DNA from: a virus
Lineage: Duplodnaviria > Heunggongvirae > Uroviricota > Caudoviricetes
Length of the DNA stretch: 42,002 nt
Direction: 5' to 3' (one strand)
Virus record (IMG/VR): IMGVR_UViG_2563366918_000005
Numbering within the stretch: position 1 is the stretch's first letter; each line of letters begins with the position of its first letter. The notes beneath the pieces were generated by a model. It was not told the origin of the DNA. It did not search any database and saw only the letters and a list, made by a program, of their open reading frames with translations. The translations under genes and the position numbers were made by a program. Shown here in pieces: positions 3,973 through 36,433 of this stretch.

Positions 3973-6579
3973 TTATTTCCTGCAAACTCCAGATGATGTT
4001 AATCCATCAAAAATAACCTGCACTCTGGCAATAACAACATCAACTCCAGAAGTCGTTTCACTTGCATAACCAAGTTTTATTTTAGATACAATATCCTGAG
4101 TAAGTTCAGATATTTCAGTTTCTGCAATGTTACCAGAGGCCATGTGATTATCGTATGCCATAGAATGAATTCCATTATTGACATCGATTGAACTAGTATG
4201 TTTGTGAAAAATAGATGGGTTTACCTGAAACGAATTTGAACCGATAAGATCAGAATATACTCCATTCATCACTGCAGTACAGCGTGGAATATTATTATCG
4301 GTTATTGTCATATGCAGACGGTTACCAGTTAACCCCTCACCAAGTGTGACATAATACGCCAATTCTCCACCTGCATATTGTTTCCCCTCAACAATAACAG
4401 TAATCCCTCTTAATTTCTGATTAGCTAGCAAAAACTTATTACTGTCTATATAGCATTTATTTGCGGAACCAAAAACAGCCCCTTCTAAAATATCTGATGA
4501 ATAGGAATAAATAAGGTCACCTGAAACAAAGGAAAGAATATCAGATACGTTTCCTTTTTTAGATAAGTTAGGAGAATAGCTATTAACTATTTCATATTGT
4601 CCTGTGATAAAATCAAGGTAAACGCCATCAGTTTTCATCTCTTTAAAGAAAATGCTATTAAAGCATCCATCAAGAACCGGTGGATATATTCTAGAGCTTG
4701 CATAAGCTGTTGGGTGATTCTTATTATTACCACTACCAGGCGAATAAACATCTTCGTTAGTCATTGACTTTTTAAGCTTAACAGGAATCATCGGCTGCAT
4801 ATCAATTTTGCAGTTCCCTGAACCACCGATGCGAGGATAAAATAAACCACCAAACCTTACAATATTACTACTGAATAGTATTTCGTTATCGTTAAGTGTT
4901 ATCTCAACGAAGTTTCCAATAAGTTTAAATTCAACTGAAAACAAACCAAGTGGAGCAGATAATTTAACAATATTGCGCATAAAAACACCTACAGTCCCTG
5001 TTGATGCAGTATAGTGTGTGGTTTCAAAGGCAGAGCCTGTATATTTCAAGTTAATGAAATTATTATGGTATGAAGACAATTGAAATTGAATCCCAGAACT
5101 AAGGATTTCAATATCTACAAATTGAATCCTTACGGAGTAAGCATATGATAAATCTTCATATTCATAAGGCAATGTAACATCTTTTGAAATAGTTGCCCTC
5201 ACATAATTACCAGAAACCACATCAATCCCATCACGTACAGCATTAAAGTAACGATTAAAATCAATAAGCCCAGCGCCAACATACTGCGCATATGACCGAG
5301 TCCATCCTGCCATTGCGTTTCGTCCATTCTGAGCTTCTAAACTGCTAAATTCAGAGTCACTTGTGGTACTTGATGGGAGGATATTTGTACAAAAAATAAT
5401 TTCAGGCATTGAAGTAATATCATTCAGTTCAGCCATCAATTTAAAAAAAGTTTTCTGCGGGAAGTTACCAACATCCCAACCATCTCCGTCATTCATGCCA
5501 AAAGCAATAATAACAACATCAGGGTTAATATCACGAATGTAATCAATCCAGCGTCTGTTCGTGTCTGAATACCATGGGTACTGTGAGTTATAAGAAGTAA
5601 TTGCTGGTGTATCTTTTCCAAGGTCATAGTACCTCATTCCACCAATTGCTCTGTTAAATAAAGTAGAACTTGGGAATTTCTCTTGCAAAACTCTCTTAAG
5701 ATGAGCGGCAAAAATGCTTGATCGATCCACTGTGCTTATATTATATGGGGCACTTAAGCTGTCACCAACTAACACTATTTTTGAGTTAGGCCTTGATAAT
5801 CTCTCAAGTGTTTTAGATGTGACTAAACTGCAGGAATTAATGAACTGAGTACTATTTAGCATCTGTTCAAGTGTATCACCAAATCTGGTACCAACGTATG
5901 ATGATCCGTTGACACTTGCTAGCTTAAGGCATAAATCAGCAGTATCTGTAATTGAAAAAATAGGAACAGGACGTCCTAAACTGTCATACCCCTGAATTGA
6001 GTTTGCCCTAGAAGATGCTGATGCCATTTCGCTTACTATCTCAGGGAAGCGGAGTGTTTTAGATATGTTGCTGTTAATAACTCCTTTGATAGATGAGTCT
6101 GTATATTTCTTCGTGGAAGCGTCCTGAGGAAATAATGGATCATCAAGGTTACGAATACGATTGCCGAGTGCATCGTAGTAAGTGGCACTAAATGATGGTT
6201 TACGAAGAGCCAGCCGAGCCATGCTTTTGACTAACTGGATCAGCATCGTTAGCTTATCAAAAGCATCCTCATGCACTTCCGCAAAGAACTTACCCTGATT
6301 GCGCAGATCAGTTTCCTGTGTAACCGGTAGCTCTCGTGATATAGAAATCTTATAGCCATTGGCCAACGCCTTCGACAATATTACATTTCCACCATTGTAT
6401 CCTCCGGCCCCGGTAACTATATAATCAGTATCAAGAGTCAGTACGGTGATATTTTCATGAATATCAACAACCTGCACAATCAAATCAGATTTATTGAAAA
6501 CCCTAAAGGCATACGGAAACGATGTCGTAACGCCGTTACCGGTGTATTCGTTGTGGTCAACTTCGGTTGAGACCGTCAT
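3973..6579 (-). CDS. tailspike / tail fibre with conserved N-terminal adaptor domain, central SGNH (GDSL) esterase-like domain and C-terminal beta-rich modules
   Basis: 868 aa. N-terminal ~155 aa (MTVSTEVDHNEYTGNGVTTSFPYAFRVF) resembles podovirus tailspike head-binding domains. SGNH blocks: KIVLVGDSLS (aa 267-276), AIGGMRY (aa 311-317), IIAFGMNDGDGW (aa 357-368). GC drops sharply below ~6100. Confidence 0.8.
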   Translation of the reverse strand: MTVSTEVDHNEYTGNGVTTSFPYAFRVFNKSDLIVQVVDIHENITVLTLDTDYIVTGAGGYNGGNVILSKALANGYKISISRELPVTQETDLRNQGKFFAEVHEDAFDKLTMLIQLVKSMARLALRKPSFSATYYDALGNRIRNLDDPLFPQDASTKKYTDSSIKGVINSNISKTLRFPEIVSEMASASSRANSIQGYDSLGRPVPIFSITDTADLCLKLASVNGSSYVGTRFGDTLEQMLNSTQFINSCSLVTSKTLERLSRPNSKIVLVGDSLSAPYNISTVDRSSIFAAHLKRVLQEKFPSSTLFNRAIGGMRYYDLGKDTPAITSYNSQYPWYSDTNRRWIDYIRDINPDVVIIAFGMNDGDGWDVGNFPQKTFFKLMAELNDITSMPEIIFCTNILPSSTTSDSEFSSLEAQNGRNAMAGWTRSYAQYVGAGLIDFNRYFNAVRDGIDVVSGNYVRATISKDVTLPYEYEDLSYAYSVRIQFVDIEILSSGIQFQLSSYHNNFINLKYTGSAFETTHYTASTGTVGVFMRNIVKLSAPLGLFSVEFKLIGNFVEITLNDNEILFSSNIVRFGGLFYPRIGGSGNCKIDMQPMIPVKLKKSMTNEDVYSPGSGNNKNHPTAYASSRIYPPVLDGCFNSIFFKEMKTDGVYLDFITGQYEIVNSYSPNLSKKGNVSDILSFVSGDLIYSYSSDILEGAVFGSANKCYIDSNKFLLANQKLRGITVIVEGKQYAGGELAYYVTLGEGLTGNRLHMTITDNNIPRCTAVMNGVYSDLIGSNSFQVNPSIFHKHTSSIDVNNGIHSMAYDNHMASGNIAETEISELTQDIVSKIKLGYASETTSGVDVVIARVQVIFDGLTSSGVCRK

Positions 6580-6682: not shown

Positions 6683-6699
6683 ATTACCTTTATGGTAAT
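6683..6699. promoter_or_regulatory. 17-bp palindromic operator ATTACCTTTATGGTAAT (perfect)
   Basis: Member of the WTTACC-N5-GGTAAW family. Lies in the divergent region between tailspike (-) and the SOS-boxed gene (+). Half-site ATTACC also at 6633. Confidence 0.7.
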
Positions 6700-6716: not shown

Positions 6717-6753
6717 TAGCAAACAAATTATTTGATACTGTATAAATATACAG
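6717..6753 (+). promoter_or_regulatory. SOS-regulated promoter: LexA box TACTGTATAAATATACAGTT (core CTGT-N8-ACAG 6738-6753) overlapping a TATAAAT -10
   Basis: Matches the consensus TACTGTATATATATACAGTA at 18/20 positions. -10 TATAAAT at 6741-6747, SD GGAG at 6763-6766, ATG at 6775. Confidence 0.85.
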
Positions 6754-6774
6754 TTATTGCATGGAGAAGATAAG

Positions 6775-7032
6775 ATGCAGCGGTATCACTATCCACTGGA
6801 AGACGGATTTACCGAAAGGATTCACACGCCGGGAGGCGTCAGGTCACTGGTGGAGGGATCGCACTTGATGAAATTACTCCGGGATCTCGATAAGGATGGA
6901 TTTAATGTCGATGGCCCACTTGCCGAACTGACTGCACTGATTAACTACGTCACCAGCTCACAGATGTCTATGCGGGATCTGCAAACACATCTCGACTATT
7001 GTGCCGAACAATTACGAAAACAAACCAGATAA
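6775..7032 (+). CDS. small LexA-controlled protein, candidate antirepressor (paralog of the Bro-N protein C-terminus)
   Basis: 85 aa from MQRYHY (GGAG 8 nt upstream; the TTG at 6757 is less likely). Residues HTPGGVRSLVEGSHLMKLLRDLDKDGFNVDGPLAELT...MRDLQTHLDY align with HSPSGVLGLTENSLLMNLLNQLQEDGHDVSGAAAELT...LRDIQTHAEY of the 7347-8039 product. Confidence 0.7.
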   Translation: MQRYHYPLEDGFTERIHTPGGVRSLVEGSHLMKLLRDLDKDGFNVDGPLAELTALINYVTSSQMSMRDLQTHLDYCAEQLRKQTR

Positions 7033-7062
7033 GGTTTGCAATTACCAAGTGGAGTGCTTATA

Positions 7063-7079
7063 TTTACCTTTGAGGTAAA
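7063..7079. promoter_or_regulatory. 17-bp palindromic operator TTTACCTTTGAGGTAAA
   Basis: Same family. Nested between the 7-bp inverted repeats GGAGTGC (7051-7057) and GCACTCC (7088-7094). A weaker neighbour lies at 7041-7057. Confidence 0.6.
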
Positions 7080-7172
7080 TTTACATCGCACTCCTCTTGT
7101 GCCATAGTAATCGGGCACTGGCAAAATCCAGTGCCGGGATTGGTCTCCCGGATTACTACAGAGGCACATATG

Positions 7173-7192
7173 CCGCATAAGCGGTTTTTTTT
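7173..7192 (+). terminator. probable rho-independent terminator (short stem, U8 tail)
   Basis: CCGC-ataa-GCGG followed by TTTTTTTT (7185-7192). The stem is only 4 bp, so strength is uncertain. Confidence 0.45.
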
Positions 7193-7346
7193 ATGTGTAA
7201 AGCGCACCTATTCTATGGTGGGCTGTGTGGGGGCACCGAAAGGTGCGCCGGGTTCCTTTGTAGCCGGTAAGACCAACTCTGCACAGTTCACCACCATCTG
7301 ATTGGTCTCAGCGGTGGTGATTAACCTAACTACAAAGGTGATCGCC

Positions 7347-8039
7347 ATGAATACCAAACCTTCCATCTTTTCCTTTGAGTCATCCTGCCAGATCCGTATG
7401 TTCATGATTGACGGAGAACCTTGGTTTGTCACCAAAGATGTGTGCAATGCTTTGAATATTGATGTTACACAAGCGAGAAAACTTGATAAAAAAGGCTGGA
7501 ACAAAAAGGGGCTGTATTCAATACAGACCCCTGGTGGAATACAAGAACTATCCATCGTTTCAGAATCAGGTCTCTACATCCTTATTCTGCGTTGCAAAGA
7601 GGCAATGACTGAGGGAACGAGAGCATTCAGATTTCTTGAATGGGTTACAGGCGAGGTTCTTCCTCAGATCCGCCGCACCGGAAGTTACATTAAAAACTCG
7701 CTACCGCAGGAAGAACGCATAAAGATGGTTGCCGACCAGGTAGCCAACGCCACGGCGTCAGCAGTAATGCAGGCGATGAAGATAGAGAACAAAACCTACA
7801 ACGCCCCGCTGAAGCCCGGCTACCGCAGCCTGATTCATTCCCCGTCTGGTGTTCTCGGCCTGACGGAGAACTCACTGCTGATGAATCTGCTGAACCAGTT
7901 ACAGGAAGACGGGCACGACGTATCGGGCGCGGCGGCGGAGCTGACCACCATGTTCTGCTACATCGTCGGTGTGAGCAAATGCCTGCGTGATATCCAGACG
8001 CACGCGGAGTACATCAACGACAAAGCAGGGTTCTTCTGA
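7347..8039 (+). CDS. Bro-N domain antirepressor-like protein
   Basis: 230 aa from MNTKPSIFSFES (SD AAGGTGA). N-terminal Bro-N signature (IRMFMIDGEPWFVTKDVCNALNI ... ESGLYILILR ... FLEWVTGEVLPQIRRTGSY). C-terminal ~70 aa paralogous to the 6775-7032 product. Confidence 0.8.
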   Translation: MNTKPSIFSFESSCQIRMFMIDGEPWFVTKDVCNALNIDVTQARKLDKKGWNKKGLYSIQTPGGIQELSIVSESGLYILILRCKEAMTEGTRAFRFLEWVTGEVLPQIRRTGSYIKNSLPQEERIKMVADQVANATASAVMQAMKIENKTYNAPLKPGYRSLIHSPSGVLGLTENSLLMNLLNQLQEDGHDVSGAAAELTTMFCYIVGVSKCLRDIQTHAEYINDKAGFF

Positions 8040-8103: not shown

Positions 8104-8120
8104 ATTACCTCACGGGTGAT
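8104..8120. promoter_or_regulatory. operator ATTACCTCACGGGTGAT with candidate -35 TTGCAG (8084-8089)
   Basis: One mismatch in the right half-site. Spacing to the TTGCAG hexamer resembles the 25615 promoter/operator arrangement. Confidence 0.55.
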
Positions 8121-8248: not shown

Positions 8249-8788
8249 GTGTTAAGTGAAGAAATGCAATTTGCCATGGCTGTGGCTCAAATCGTAAGTG
8301 CAGTCGCGGTTTCGCTTGGCTTGTTCATAGCTATCGCTACTATTATTTATAATGTAAATACAGCGAGAAAAGTACACACTTCAGTATTCCTTGGTGAAAG
8401 CAGGTTTGATGTAGATTATAAGAAAGGCCTATCTACTATGCGCCGCATTCACGAATCGAACAAATCATTCCGCTCTTATATGTATCCAAGCAATGGGCAG
8501 GCTGATCTTACGGATGAAGAAAAGACAGAGAAGAGAGAAATAATTTACTGTCTAGGTTTCTACGAACGCATGGCTGTGAGCGTGAAGCGGAAAACTTATG
8601 ATGAGACCATGATTAAGGAAGTATTTTACAGCTCCGTTGTAAATAACTATCAGATTGCGCTACCTCTTATACAAGCCATTAGAGAAAAAGAAAACATAAA
8701 CACATATTTTAAAGAATATGAATGGTTGGCCACACGATGGAAGGATTGCCCATTGAAGGATAAATCCCCGTGGTACAAGTTTTGGTAA
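8249..8788 (+). CDS. N-terminally membrane-anchored moron protein (resembles DUF4760-type proteins; from memory)
   Basis: 179 aa with GTG start and GGAG 7 nt upstream. Single TM helix AVAVSLGLFIAIATIIYNV, then a soluble domain. AT-rich. Flanked by its own terminators (8208-8230, 8789-8810). Confidence 0.7.
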   Translation: MLSEEMQFAMAVAQIVSAVAVSLGLFIAIATIIYNVNTARKVHTSVFLGESRFDVDYKKGLSTMRRIHESNKSFRSYMYPSNGQADLTDEEKTEKREIIYCLGFYERMAVSVKRKTYDETMIKEVFYSSVVNNYQIALPLIQAIREKENINTYFKEYEWLATRWKDCPLKDKSPWYKFW

Positions 8789-9567: not shown

Positions 9568-12042
9568 TTATTGCGGAGTGACATCCTGAGGTCGCCACCA
9601 GTATGTCTGGTTAAACTCTTTCTTCGAACGTTGCTCCATTTTACGCAAATAACCTGGTGAAAAATACTCCTGCATCTGGTTAAAGATCATGTGATCGAGA
9701 GCCGCCTTTAAGTACCAGAGATTCGCACCTGGCATCAGACCTTTCCCCAGCTTGACCAGATCACCACCAGTCTGCTCATTCTTCCCTTCCACAGCATTTA
9801 ACGGTATGCCCTGAGCAATCTTCACTACGTCATCAACCAGACCAGCTACCGGGCCAAGCATCGACGCCAGCGCGCCGCTTCCGTACCTAGTGTGATCTGA
9901 CAATAAAAAGTCACCGTAAAGGCCAAGACCACCACCTTTCAGTAGAGCACCAAGCCAAAATTTAGCAGCATCTTCTCCTGTCATCTCACGAGGATTACGA
10001 CCAGACGCAAGGTCGTTAAGTTGCTGCGACAAAGCGCCAAGAATGGTCGTACTGGCAATAAACGTCGCAATATATGCCGCACGCCCACCAGCAGACGGCA
10101 TACCCATAGCGCGTGACCAGTGACGCATAACCACCGAGATAGGGAACGATTTAAACAGGAAAACACTTCTCGTTAATTCACCTTTCCATGTTCCACGCTG
10201 AATACCAGAACCGGTTATCAGTTGCTCACGTGCTCCCGGTGTAATAACAGCCATATCAACTTCTTCAGTTACGGCACCGAGCAGTTTACGCATTGCCTCA
10301 AATTTCACGCGTTCAGGCTCACCAAGATGTTTAACTGCTGAATCAGGGATACGCATAATGCTTTCCGGTGTCAGCATCGTATTATTACCGTTCCCCCAGT
10401 CCTCCTGTTGCGCCAGCTTCCATACGCTCCAGTCTGTGTCAGTAATTCCTTTGCTTTTCAGGATACGAAAATCAGAGTCATCGAGGCTACGAAGGTCTGG
10501 TGTCCGTGACACTACTTCTCCCAGGCTTCCCATCATGGTTACGCCATAGGCGCGCTTGTGCGCATCTGACCATGCTGTAAGCCCACTGGCACGCATTACC
10601 GCCGTTGCCGCCCAGCGAGACACTGACGGCCCCATATTATCCATCGCCCAGCGGTTAACGCTGCCAAGTAGAGATTCCATCGCCAGACCAGCGCGGCGCG
10701 CCCGCGCAAGTTCTGTACGGTTCGTTGGGTCCATAGCTTCAAGCTGGTTGCGGAATAACTGGTTCATTGGAAGGTTGGTAACCTTCGCAGACAGATACAT
10801 GGTTCCAAGATCAGAGAACGATGACAGCAACGCGGATCCGAGTCTGCTGGCAACCAGCCAGTTGCGGATATTGTCAGACCATCGCGCGATGTGCGGATTT
10901 GCTACAGGCTGTGTCTTTCCGGAAATAAAGTTGTACAGATTCTCTGTGTTGTTCGCCAGCCGCTCGACTTTACCGGTTTTACTCGGGTTAGCTGTTGCCG
11001 TTTCTGCCTTCACCTGATCAAGAAGAGAGCGGAAAACATGATCTGGGTTTGGGCCATATGTTTCCACCAGTGCAATATCTTTACTGATACCTTCCAGGTG
11101 ACCGACCATGATTTCCCATAGAGAGCGATCGCCATAAAGTTGCTGATATTGCAGATAGGAATCTGCATCTTTGAAATGTATCTGTCGTGATGCATTACCA
11201 CGGTTAGCACGTGCGCCGGAAATTCGCATTCCGGTATCAGTAAGCTTATTCAGCCCACCAGTAGCGATCGTGTTATAAGCCTCTCCAAGAAATGCAGACA
11301 ACTCGGCATCGTTCATCAGTTGTCCATCGGCTCGGATATAATATTTGCGATCCAGCTTACCTATAACATCGCTAACCCACTTATCCTTTGATACCGCCCC
11401 AACCTTTTCCATAGAATGATGTTGAGGGATCCCCCAGTTTTCGAGATAGCCAATGTCCCCGCCAGCATCATTAAACCGGCGGCGCAGTAGATCTGTCACT
11501 TCTCTCCACGCCTTAGCACCTTTTCTTGCTTTAGCATTGCCAGTATTTTGTCCTCGCATTTCATATACCAGGTCACGCACGCCAGCTTCATCTTCAAACA
11601 GGCCAAAAAAGCGAGGATCAACTGCTTCAAATGCCTCCTGCAATTGACTCAATGCATAATCACGAGTGGCTTTTGTTCTGGACTCAACAGAGAGGAAATT
11701 CGATTTACCGTCTGCATTAAAAGCAATAGTACGGTTAAGAGCGCCAAGTTTCCCATCAGCCCCTTGATAGCTATTGATAAATTTATCCAATCTCTGACGT
11801 GCGGCTATAGTGAGGGCCACACGACGTTTCTTTAATGCCGCTTCTCGCTGTAATTCTTCAGATGCCAATTGTGCTGCTCGATATAGCCGCTCTGATTCGG
11901 AAAGTTGTCTCCACGACATCGGGTCATCACGAGCAATGGAGCGCATATTTCGATAAATGCGGTCTTCAATGTTCTGTATTTCTCGCGCCGTTAACGTGCG
12001 CTGCGCCGCCTGCTGAACCGCTTGTATACATTCCTGTCTCAT
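9568..12042 (-). CDS. large virion-associated (internal/ejection or tail-hub) protein
   Basis: 824 aa. Position after the other large internal proteins in a podovirus structural operon. Hydrophobic Gly-rich segment near the C-terminus (AAYIATFIASTTILGALS ... GGGLGLYGDFLL). No family recognised. Confidence 0.55.
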   Translation of the reverse strand: MRQECIQAVQQAAQRTLTAREIQNIEDRIYRNMRSIARDDPMSWRQLSESERLYRAAQLASEELQREAALKKRRVALTIAARQRLDKFINSYQGADGKLGALNRTIAFNADGKSNFLSVESRTKATRDYALSQLQEAFEAVDPRFFGLFEDEAGVRDLVYEMRGQNTGNAKARKGAKAWREVTDLLRRRFNDAGGDIGYLENWGIPQHHSMEKVGAVSKDKWVSDVIGKLDRKYYIRADGQLMNDAELSAFLGEAYNTIATGGLNKLTDTGMRISGARANRGNASRQIHFKDADSYLQYQQLYGDRSLWEIMVGHLEGISKDIALVETYGPNPDHVFRSLLDQVKAETATANPSKTGKVERLANNTENLYNFISGKTQPVANPHIARWSDNIRNWLVASRLGSALLSSFSDLGTMYLSAKVTNLPMNQLFRNQLEAMDPTNRTELARARRAGLAMESLLGSVNRWAMDNMGPSVSRWAATAVMRASGLTAWSDAHKRAYGVTMMGSLGEVVSRTPDLRSLDDSDFRILKSKGITDTDWSVWKLAQQEDWGNGNNTMLTPESIMRIPDSAVKHLGEPERVKFEAMRKLLGAVTEEVDMAVITPGAREQLITGSGIQRGTWKGELTRSVFLFKSFPISVVMRHWSRAMGMPSAGGRAAYIATFIASTTILGALSQQLNDLASGRNPREMTGEDAAKFWLGALLKGGGLGLYGDFLLSDHTRYGSGALASMLGPVAGLVDDVVKIAQGIPLNAVEGKNEQTGGDLVKLGKGLMPGANLWYLKAALDHMIFNQMQEYFSPGYLRKMEQRSKKEFNQTYWWRPQDVTPQ

Positions 12043-21602: not shown

Positions 21603-21653
21603 CTTCTTTCTCCATTAGTGGGTCTGTTACGACCAACAGGTTAATAACAGGCG

Positions 21654-25614: not shown

Positions 25615-25652
25615 TTGACATTTAACGCACAAATTATTACCTTTCAGGTAAG
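25615..25652 (+). promoter_or_regulatory. candidate sigma70 promoter TTGACA-17-TACCTT overlapped by operator ATTACCTTTCAGGTAAG (25636-25652)
   Basis: Perfect -35 at 25615-25620. The -10 keeps only T1, A2 and T6. The operator covers -10/+1. Points towards the tRNA and the IS1-split gene. Confidence 0.55.
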
Positions 25653-35848: not shown

Positions 35849-36433
35849 ATGAAAAGTATCCAGGACGTCCGCAGGCAAAATCTCAACGACTTGATCGACC
35901 GTGAATTCAATGGTGTTCAGACGCGGATGGCAGAAAAACTTGGAACTCAGGCAAATCTGGTAAACCGCTGGGCTCTTGGCAAGAAGGTTATCGGCGACCA
36001 GGTTGCACGAAAAATTGAAGCTGCCGCCAATAAACCCCGTAACTGGCTTGATATTGATCGCTCGCTTTCTCAGGAGGGTTTTCAGCCTGTCGGCCCGAGC
36101 GATATAGGTCAGCTGGCGGCTCACAACCTGGAACGCTGGATGAGCGAAAGCCGCGACCTTTCAACGCAGGGAAAACTACACCGCGCATCCGGCGTCGCCC
36201 AGGTGACAATCAGCCGCCTGTTAAACAATGAGGTCAGCGTTTCCATTTCCACCCTGGAGAATGTTGCATCCGCATTCGGGCGTCACGGCTATGAATTACT
36301 GATTCACCCGCACGACCCTGCGACCATCAACTATGATCGCTCGCGCTACGCATTGTTACCCGAAACCGAGAAAGCAAAGATCGAAAGTTACATTGAATTT
36401 GTCATCAACCAGAACGAAAAAAACAAACAATAA
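35849..36433 (+). CDS. prophage repressor with two tandem HTH (XRE-type) domains and no S24 peptidase domain
   Basis: 194 aa. HTH 1 is TRMAEKLGTQANLVNRWALG. HTH 2 is KLHRASGVAQVTISRLLNN. Only ~35 aa follow the second HTH. No SD before the ATG (possibly leaderless). Confidence 0.75.
   Translation: MKSIQDVRRQNLNDLIDREFNGVQTRMAEKLGTQANLVNRWALGKKVIGDQVARKIEAAANKPRNWLDIDRSLSQEGFQPVGPSDIGQLAAHNLERWMSESRDLSTQGKLHRASGVAQVTISRLLNNEVSVSISTLENVASAFGRHGYELLIHPHDPATINYDRSRYALLPETEKAKIESYIEFVINQNEKNKQ

Follow-up and report, generated by a model that had tools for sequence, protein, structure and literature searches.

The window analysed here, a stretch of 42,002 nucleotides of virus DNA (IMG/VR record IMGVR_UViG_2563366918_000005), carries an epsilon15/phiV10-like podophage of the genus Uetakevirus as a prophage of Escherichia coli. 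Two open reading frames are localized on the plus strand (6775-7032, 85 amino acids, and 7347-8039, 230 amino acids) between two genes of the minus strand, one for the tailspike (3973-6579) and one for an 824-residue injection-type protein (9568-12042). The first encodes a free antirepressor, Ant, behind a putative LexA box, and the second encodes a Bro-N domain fused to a paralogous Ant-like domain, behind an IsrK/C4 riboregulator. This locus is probably a two-stage switch inactivating the phage repressor Rep, where Ant would be triggered by the SOS response and would be followed by a second antirepressor gated by both Rep and C4.

Homology of the free and fused antirepressor domains

The two proteins, the LexA box and the repressor are localized as follows:

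6775-7032, plus strand: ant, free antirepressor of 85 residues, ortholog of SPC32H Ant
6736-6755, plus strand: putative LexA box TACTGTATAAATATACAGTT ahead of ant, 18 of 20 consensus positions, 20 nucleotides upstream of the ATG
7347-8039, plus strand: Bro-N::Ant-like fusion of 230 residues, putative antirepressor, with Bro-N at residues 16-106 (7392-7664) and the Ant-like domain at residues 149-222 (7791-8012)
35849-36433, plus strand: rep, repressor of 194 residues, presumed target of both antirepressors, matching 5D50_A (SPC32H Rep) over its full length with an E value of 4e-42

A preliminary description, made from the sequence by eye, had considered the small protein as a free copy of the C-terminal domain of the Bro-N protein, with roughly 40% identity. 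This is borne out by BLASTP, which aligns residues 2-75 of the small protein with residues 149-222 of the large one (32 identities over 74 residues, 43%, 0 gaps, E value 8e-17). In the comparison with shuffled sequences, chosen beforehand as the test of the claim, the Smith-Waterman score of 167 is far above the controls (26.2 +/- 4.3, n = 2000, maximum 61; z about 32). Both proteins match the same PHROG, phrog_450 (E values of 1e-47 for the 85-residue and 3e-37 for the 230-residue protein), and the same solved chain, 5D50_E (3.5e-46 and 4.9e-14, respectively), and the Ant-like domain of the large protein is homologous to Ant in sequence and in fold. The alignment of free and fused domains reveals 24 invariant positions, mostly in the N-terminal two thirds. 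The 5D50_E match of the fused domain was not recovered by Foldseek, and an AlphaFold model of the full 230-residue protein with 24 close homologs was poor (predicted local distance difference test score of 55.7) and was set aside. Pfam and NCBIfam contain no family for Ant or for the fused C-terminal domain and gave only chance-level matches.

Residues 2-84 of Ant align to residues 3-85 of 5D50_E with about 87% identity (87% with tblastn). The Ant of SPC32H is a protein of 86 residues, annotated as ant in the SPC32H record, and the whole protein is the antirepressor crystallised with Rep (PDB 5D50). The suggestion that the shared domain is the repressor-binding unit is strengthened by this identity of 87% between the free form and a protein crystallised with its repressor. 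The ratio of non-synonymous to synonymous substitution rates (dN/dS) amounts to about 0.08 in Ant and to 0.19-0.28 in the fused C-terminal domain, which indicates purifying selection on both.

The LexA control that had been proposed for one of the two copies agrees with the box at 6736-6755, a putative site detected by sequence match and the sole AT-spaced CTGT-N8-ACAG of the window. It is kept at the same position in SPC32H and also in phiV10 and Tyrion, and the Klebsiella, L013 and L015 lineages (the last two being distant loci) display a box with one mismatch (ATGT..ACAG). A second CTGT-N8-ACAG, at 21624, was rejected as a LexA box and taken as a chance occurrence because its spacer is GC-rich and it lies within the late region.

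The Rep of the window shares 100% identity with its counterparts in phiV10, ZX5, phiv142-3 and EC.W1-9 and 42% with that of SPC32H, and as in SPC32H it is not of the self-cleaving type. In SPC32H, Rep binds DNA as a tetramer and the Ant tetramer binds two Rep dimers (PMC9638917). In several Salmonella prophages, the SOS response with self-cleavage of LexA leads to synthesis of an antirepressor, and the lytic repressor is inhibited by protein-protein interaction (review PMC7380047, citing Kim and Ryu 2013 on SPC32H). It is by analogy, through close homology to these experimentally studied proteins, that the first stage of the switch is proposed.

The fusion of the other copy to Bro-N is confirmed by Pfam: Bro-N (PF02498) is detected at residues 16-106 with 51.5 bits (cut-off 25.6) and is followed by a linker and by the Ant-like domain. 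A weak match to Tad2 within the Bro-N domain (E value 0.05) was discarded as insignificant, and PADLOC gave no match for the fusion protein or its neighbours. An experimental anchor is provided by ORF4 of vB_EcoP_ZX5, annotated 'anti-repressor' (Pathogens 2022, PMC9782041), which is encoded at the same locus in a phage with an identical Rep. From residue 97 on (C-terminal 134 residues, comprising linker and Ant-like domain), the fusion of the window and ORF4 differ only at N152, a serine in ZX5; on the other hand, the Bro-N allele of ORF4 is only 68% identical and its C4 class is different. Overexpression of ORF4 decreased the lysogens from 1e9 to 1e6 plaque-forming units per mL (about 1000-fold) and repressor transcription by 75%, in an assay of lysogenisation after infection rather than of induction (PMC9782041). 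In the same paper the free Ant is annotated as hypothetical, and neither the domain homology nor the riboregulator is mentioned (PMC9782041).

In a neighbour-joining tree the free Ants form one clade and the fused domains another; because of these separate clades, the two forms are considered as old paralogs and not as the result of a recent duplication. The duplication noted in the preliminary description is retained as paralogy, while recent copying is not. Since Ant acts as a tetramer in SPC32H and the 24 invariant positions are common to both domains, one could imagine that the fusion modulates Ant, through mixed tetramers which would tether Ant via Bro-N or damp it as a dominant negative. 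Damping conflicts with the pro-lytic effect of ORF4 overexpression in ZX5, and no conserved hetero-interface is evident from domains of 43% identity placed in separate clades. We regard this modulation as highly improbable.

The IsrK/C4 leader and the candidate Rep operators

The region between ant and the fusion gene had been described as a structured leader. The segment 7071-7360 indeed folds with a z of -5.2 relative to shuffled sequences, and the description can be refined: the leader is a known riboregulator, composed of an IsrK-like small RNA and a C4 antisense RNA, both identified with Rfam. Its elements are:

7115-7191, plus strand: IsrK-like small RNA (RF01394, 74.7 bits, gathering score 50), with decoys b1 at 7140-7146 and a1 at 7156-7164
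7172-7185 and the T-run that follows, plus strand: intrinsic terminator of IsrK (stem and T-run)
7211-7298, plus strand: C4-type antisense RNA (RF01695, 78.6 bits, gathering score 45, full model 1-87)
7215-7301, plus strand: short upstream open reading frame of 28 residues with its AUG inside C4, positional equivalent of Gifsy-1 orf45
7302-7341, plus strand: C4 target sites on the mRNA, b2 at 7302-7308 (UUGGUCU) and a2 at 7330-7338 (CUACAAAGG)

The IsrK start at 7115 (position 1 of the Rfam model) was mapped from Gifsy-1, where the first AUG of orf45 is numbered A107 and corresponds to position 5 of the C4 model. IsrK and C4 exceed the gathering scores of Rfam in the window and in every relative that has the second gene. 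The family RF03163 (c4-a1b1, the a1 and b1 targets of C4) was also matched, at 7102-7154, with 39.9 bits, below its gathering score of 46.7. The loops of C4 are a' (7255-7263, CCUUUGUAG) and b' (7270-7276, AGACCAA). They are perfect complements of a2 over 9 nucleotides and of b2 over 7 nucleotides, respectively, a' pairs also with a1 and b' with b1, and the Shine-Dalgarno sequence of the Bro-N gene, AAGGUGA (7335-7341), lies partly within a2.

An alignment of eight leaders reveals that a1, a' and a2 on one hand, and b1, b' and b2 on the other hand, change together, which defines four specificity classes; non-cognate pairs lose the pairing. Class I contains the window, EC.W1-9, Tyrion and a Klebsiella phage. 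Class II contains phiV10 and TL-2011b, in which one base is deleted from each of a1, a' and a2 and UC is replaced by CG in each of b1, b' and b2. Class III is represented by phiv142-3 and class IV by Gifsy-1, and the distant locus L015 displays a fifth pairing combination. The leader of ZX5, 83.7% identical to that of the window and outside the eight-leader alignment, belongs probably to class II because its C4 Rfam score equals that of phiV10 and TL-2011b and its upstream open reading frame is likewise the same. The covariation by which the pairing is kept argues strongly for a functional RNA system in this prophage.

In the immI region of P1 and P7, the c4 RNA represses Ant protein synthesis (PMC8546580, PMC7313666). 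In Gifsy-1, transcription past the IsrK terminator yields an mRNA that is translationally silent, the short IsrK activates it in trans, and the antirepressor AnrP induces the prophage (PMC4825925). The trans-activation by IsrK passes through orf45, whose equivalent is not conserved in the present phages, while the logic of a1/b1 decoys for C4 is conserved. The upstream open reading frame has from 3 to 45 residues among relatives (3-35 in those that are epsilon15-like), and in the window it ends 45 nucleotides before the ATG of the Bro-N gene; in view of this variation, coupling of the Gifsy-1 orf45 type, or by an icd-like reading frame, was rejected as a conserved feature.

Promoter-like sites and palindromes surround these RNAs:

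7036-7064, plus strand: upstream promoter-like site TTGCAA-17-TATATT (consensus match only)
7080-7108, plus strand: candidate promoter equivalent to P_isrK, TTTACA-17-CATAGT, with TG, from a consensus scan; it aligns with TTGACA-17-TATATT of Gifsy-1
6684-6698, no strand assigned: exact palindrome TTACCTTTATGGTAA, candidate Rep operator, 54 nucleotides upstream of the LexA box of ant
7064-7078, no strand assigned: exact palindrome TTACCTTTGAGGTAA, candidate Rep operator with its centre at about -44 relative to the IsrK start
8105-8119, no strand assigned: degenerate palindrome TTACCTCACGGGTGA, one mismatch, downstream of the fusion gene

The motif TTACC-N5-GGTAA is present 15 times in the window with at most one mismatch (9 times exactly), where 0.73 occurrences are expected. 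The rep gene is flanked by pairs of it (35731/35779 and 36491/36553), and that of SPC32H is flanked likewise (33528, 33604 and 33666 on one side, 34390, 34407 and 34437 on the other). From this distribution, TTACC-N5-GGTAA is likely the Rep operator. Since the palindromes are scattered over the whole prophage, they suggest that one repressor directly controls many promoters, like C1 in P1, where 22 scattered C1 operators are known (PMC8546580). Further palindromes of the window are localized at 25637, 26254, 29933/29951, 33410/33472 and 35394, and further ones of SPC32H (L008) at 12, 3175, 20013 and 35972/36034. Some palindromes are upstream of the terminase, structural and late operons, and they are often paired 48-62 base pairs apart.

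The position of the 6684 palindrome is kept in SPC32H, Tyrion, EC.W1-9 and phiv142-3. The palindrome at 7064 begins on the last base of the -10 element of the 7036-7064 promoter and ends one base ahead of the -35 element of the 7080-7108 promoter. An exact palindrome is found 48-51 nucleotides upstream of isrK in all ten epsilon15-like cassette loci examined (the window, phiV10, TL-2011b, Tyrion, EC.W1-9, phiv142-3, KpST512, HEMP4, L013 and L015), and the TTGnnn-17-TATnAT arrangement of the upstream promoter-like site is kept in relatives even where the flanks differ. At the isrK promoter of Gifsy-1 the Rep-type palindrome is absent. Exact palindromes occupy the position equivalent to 8105 in TL-2011b, EC.W1-9, phiv142-3 and HEMP4 (L003 5674, L005 5094, L006 3980, L011 5351), and this palindrome precedes the next plus-strand genes (in the window, a DUF4760 gene at 8249-8788). 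A 12-nucleotide inverted repeat (7046-7057/7088-7099, 11 of 12 positions complementary) brackets the 7064 palindrome and the -35 element of the IsrK promoter; phiV10 and phiv142-3 have retained it, Tyrion has not.

For the pair of antirepressors, the preliminary description had proposed either graded induction or the targeting of two repressors. In the latter case, the fusion would be aimed at the repressor of a co-resident prophage and the free Ant at its own Rep, with synchronised induction in polylysogens. Gifsy-1, Gifsy-3 and Fels-1 are documented to have antirepressors that act on foreign repressors (PMC3121763), the N-terminal domains are freely swapped, and the specificities of the free and fused domains could differ because their identity is only 43% and they form separate clades. 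However, distant lineages included, the fused domain always travels with the free Ant and has a Rep-type palindrome at its promoter, its divergence ranks like that of Rep (E. coli, then Tyrion, then Klebsiella), and ORF4 of ZX5 altered the lysogeny of its own phage. We therefore hold such cross-talk to be quite unlikely: a two-step induction directed at the prophage's own repressor fits the evidence, and in the window, which contains the prophage only, no positive support was found for a foreign one.

A probable two-stage inactivation of Rep

In the proposed two-stage switch, LexA would occupy the box at 6736-6755 and its removal by DNA damage would allow the synthesis of the 85-residue Ant. 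By analogy with SPC32H, the Ant tetramer would bind two Rep dimers and the DNA-binding tetramer of Rep would be broken. The anatomy of the second stage can be read in the DNA, and its logic we infer. The cassette, of the immI type and directly downstream of ant, is organised in the order of candidate promoters beside a Rep-operator-like palindrome, an IsrK-like small RNA with a presumably leaky terminator, C4 and the Bro-N fusion gene. In the lysogen, C4 would pair with b2 and a2 and cover the Shine-Dalgarno sequence, leaving the fusion untranslated. Between ant and the cassette no terminator was detected, so SOS-driven ant transcripts should enter the cassette and add a1/b1 decoys for C4. Through this read-through from ant, IsrK-type decoys would soak up C4 and more read-through mRNA would be made. 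Loss of Rep from the 7064 palindrome would open at least the upstream promoter of the cassette, and the fusion antirepressor would keep Rep off independently of LexA, rendering the induction self-reinforcing. The Ant-like domain would supply the specificity for Rep, with the N-terminal domain as an exchangeable accessory.

During infection, the cassette would act like immI of P1, with lysogeny delayed or blocked as long as C4 has not accumulated; a superinfecting relative would escape the immunity of the resident if its C4 allele differs. Heteroimmunity of the immI type is expected because at least three C4 classes exist among phages of identical Rep.

The same three or more C4 classes under a 100% identical Rep can also be taken as a sign that the cassette is an infection-time immunity determinant only, involved in the choice between lysis and lysogeny and in superinfection, with no part in SOS induction. 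It would then resemble immI of P1 and P7, two phages which share the specificity of C1 and differ in c4. The ZX5 experiment, which scored lysogenisation after infection, points in this direction, as do the distance of 1.1 kb that separates ant from the cassette in TL-2011b and EC.W1-9, which loosens their linkage, and the fact that the Ant of P22 is unnecessary for induction (PMC3121763). Nevertheless, the lack of a detected terminator indicates that ant and the cassette are probably co-transcribed on SOS, and the homologous cassette of Gifsy-1 does drive prophage induction (PMC4825925). A role restricted to infection appears unlikely to us.

Several points weigh against the two-stage switch. 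The palindrome is assigned to Rep solely from its distribution, and it is uncertain whether Rep would repress or activate the downstream promoter, that of IsrK, given that the 7064 site is centred at about -44. The present phages do not conserve the upstream open reading frame through which translation is coupled in Gifsy-1, so the mechanism of Gifsy-1 is not transferable in detail. The effect of ZX5 ORF4 is an overexpression phenotype, and no report of binding of the C-terminal domain to Rep was found in the literature read. Finally, SPC32H and epsilon15 manage with the first stage alone and the C-terminal domain is frameshifted in phiV10, from which the second stage is dispensable, at least in some settings.

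Each component of the locus is of a described kind: Ant and Rep of SPC32H, LexA-controlled antirepressors, the C4/IsrK cassette and domain shuffling of the Bro-N type. Antirepressors controlled by LexA are those of the Gifsy phages and of phage 186.

The Rep-Ant system of SPC32H (Kim and Ryu 2013; Kim et al. 2016; PDB 5D50, 5D4Z) is found in the same genus and at the same genome position, between the tailspike and injection-protein genes. It shares with the window an Ant of 87% identity, the LexA box at the same place and TTACC-N5-GGTAA motifs flanking rep. It differs by the presence of the free Ant only, without IsrK/C4 cassette or fused paralog, and by a Rep of 42% identity.

The immI region of P1 and P7 (c4 - icd - ant1/ant2) resembles the cassette by a C4 derived from the leader of its own operon, by the pairing of a'/b' with a2/b2 at the ribosome-binding site, by upstream a1/b1 copies and by allelic C4 specificities among phages that share a repressor. 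It has likewise two antirepressors, one of them small (Coi in P1 and P7), and operators scattered over the genome. In contrast to P1 and P7, the effector of the window is a fusion of Bro-N with an SPC32H-Ant-like domain instead of the Ant1/2 of P1, no icd-like reading frame is conserved, the small antirepressor is under LexA and a1/b1 are included in a terminated small RNA of the IsrK type.

The isrK-orf45-anrP cassette of Gifsy-1 (Hershko-Shalev et al. 2016) has its elements in the same order, namely a promoter, IsrK with a read-through terminator, a C4-like RNA (STnc1160) and an antirepressor gene, with both RNAs above the Rfam gathering scores, and a separate small antirepressor is controlled by LexA (PMC3121763). 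Unlike in the window, AnrP consists of ORF6N and an unrelated C-terminus, orf45 overlaps the start of anrP and the promoter palindrome is absent. In the APSE phages (Rouil et al. 2020, PMC7313666), isrK and c4 are annotated upstream of a Bro-N gene, whose upstream region is matched by a'/b', but these phages are of a different type and no Ant or Rep of the SPC32H type is reported there (PMC7313666).

In the literature read we found no description of the C-terminal domain of these widespread fusions as a paralog of SPC32H Ant, of LexA-gated and C4-gated copies side by side on one repressor, or of a Rep-type palindrome at the promoter of the cassette. Tentatively, and with less confidence than in the switch itself, the locus may be a hybrid immunity circuit, where the SOS/LexA scheme of Gifsy and 186 and the antisense immI scheme of P1 and P7 would be joined on one repressor by paralogous Rep-binding domains. 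The C4-gated copy would be a positive-feedback latch controlled by Rep, and the C4 alleles (at least three under an identical Rep) would define heteroimmunity groups like those of P1 and P7, a superinfecting relative being possibly able to induce the resident despite the shared repressor. As a portable 'warhead', the Ant-like domain would be combined by recombination with N-terminal domains of five unrelated kinds and with their native regulatory cassettes (C4/IsrK, or sar in TL-2011b).

The paralogy with SPC32H Ant gives a testable target, Rep, for many unexplained prophage proteins with Bro-N, AntA, Rha, ORF6N or P22-Ant-N domains. One repressor would respond to DNA damage as well as to an antisense-RNA immunity system, two inputs that bear on the stability, inducibility and mutual exclusion of related prophages, including those of O157 and other pathogenic E. 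coli.

Distribution and evolution of the Ant-like domain

An exhaustive profile search of 1.84 billion cluster representatives has recovered 61 clusters with an Ant-like domain. Free forms of 82-95 residues predominate among them, and in every full-length fusion the Ant-like domain is C-terminal. The fusions were found by this exhaustive search, as a word-indexed search with Ant gave almost only free forms. The N-terminal partners are Bro-N, AntA, Phage_pRha (Rha), ORF6N and P22_AR_N, the last one in TL-2011b. Phages with a 100% identical Rep carry near-identical C-terminal domains on different N-terminal domains, which indicates that the swaps of N-terminal domains are recent. In TL-2011b, a third Ant-like domain is present in a P22_AR_N fusion of 314 residues (L012 2732-3745), directly behind a sar RNA (RF00262, 44.8 bits); this amounts to an immI unit of the P22 type with the same effector domain.

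The gene ant is present without the cassette in SPC32H, epsilon15 and SPN1S, and with the cassette in the relatives from E. coli, Enterobacter and Klebsiella. The combination of a free Ant and a C4-gated fusion persists in L013 and L015, where Ant is 44-57% identical and the N-terminal domains differ (ORF6N, Rha). In phiV10 (L001 4169-4422), the frameshift truncates the C-terminal domain and the gene is annotated as p23 (194 residues) and p22 (29 residues); this phage may lack a working second antirepressor, or the record may contain a sequencing error. In Gifsy-1, AnrP has a C-terminus unrelated to the small open reading frame downstream of dinI (E value 8.2), which was taken as the LexA-controlled antirepressor by its position only. 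As the C-terminus of AnrP is unrelated, the paralogy is considered a feature of this phage group and not of the cassette in general.

The module is present in 542 of 5426 complete E. coli genomes, i.e. about one in ten. RefSeq labels the fusion "BRO-N domain-containing protein" and the free Ant "hypothetical protein"; the listed RefSeq genomes of E. coli and most of the listed phage records give the Ant ortholog the latter label, despite the solved structure of its homolog.

Between ant and the IsrK promoter, an insertion of about 1.1 kb with two minus-strand open reading frames is present in EC.W1-9 (L005 2957-3872) and TL-2011b (L003 3780-4868); these reading frames gave no match in Pfam or PADLOC. 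In the Klebsiella phage ST512-KPC3phi13.3 (L007 3846-4103), a DUF1902 (PF08972) gene is localized between ant and the IsrK/C4 cassette. A few apparently free-standing proteins of 89-95 residues (P0124, P0125 and P0133) are included in the clade of fused domains and start with MPAI(L/M)EA, the motif of the linker; these could be gene calls cut short or genuine proteins made of linker and domain. In L015, the gene call of the Rha::Ant-like protein (10001-10960, 319 residues) is over-extended in 5' through the IsrK/C4 leader, and the true start is probably the methionine of MNTSL..., after a2.

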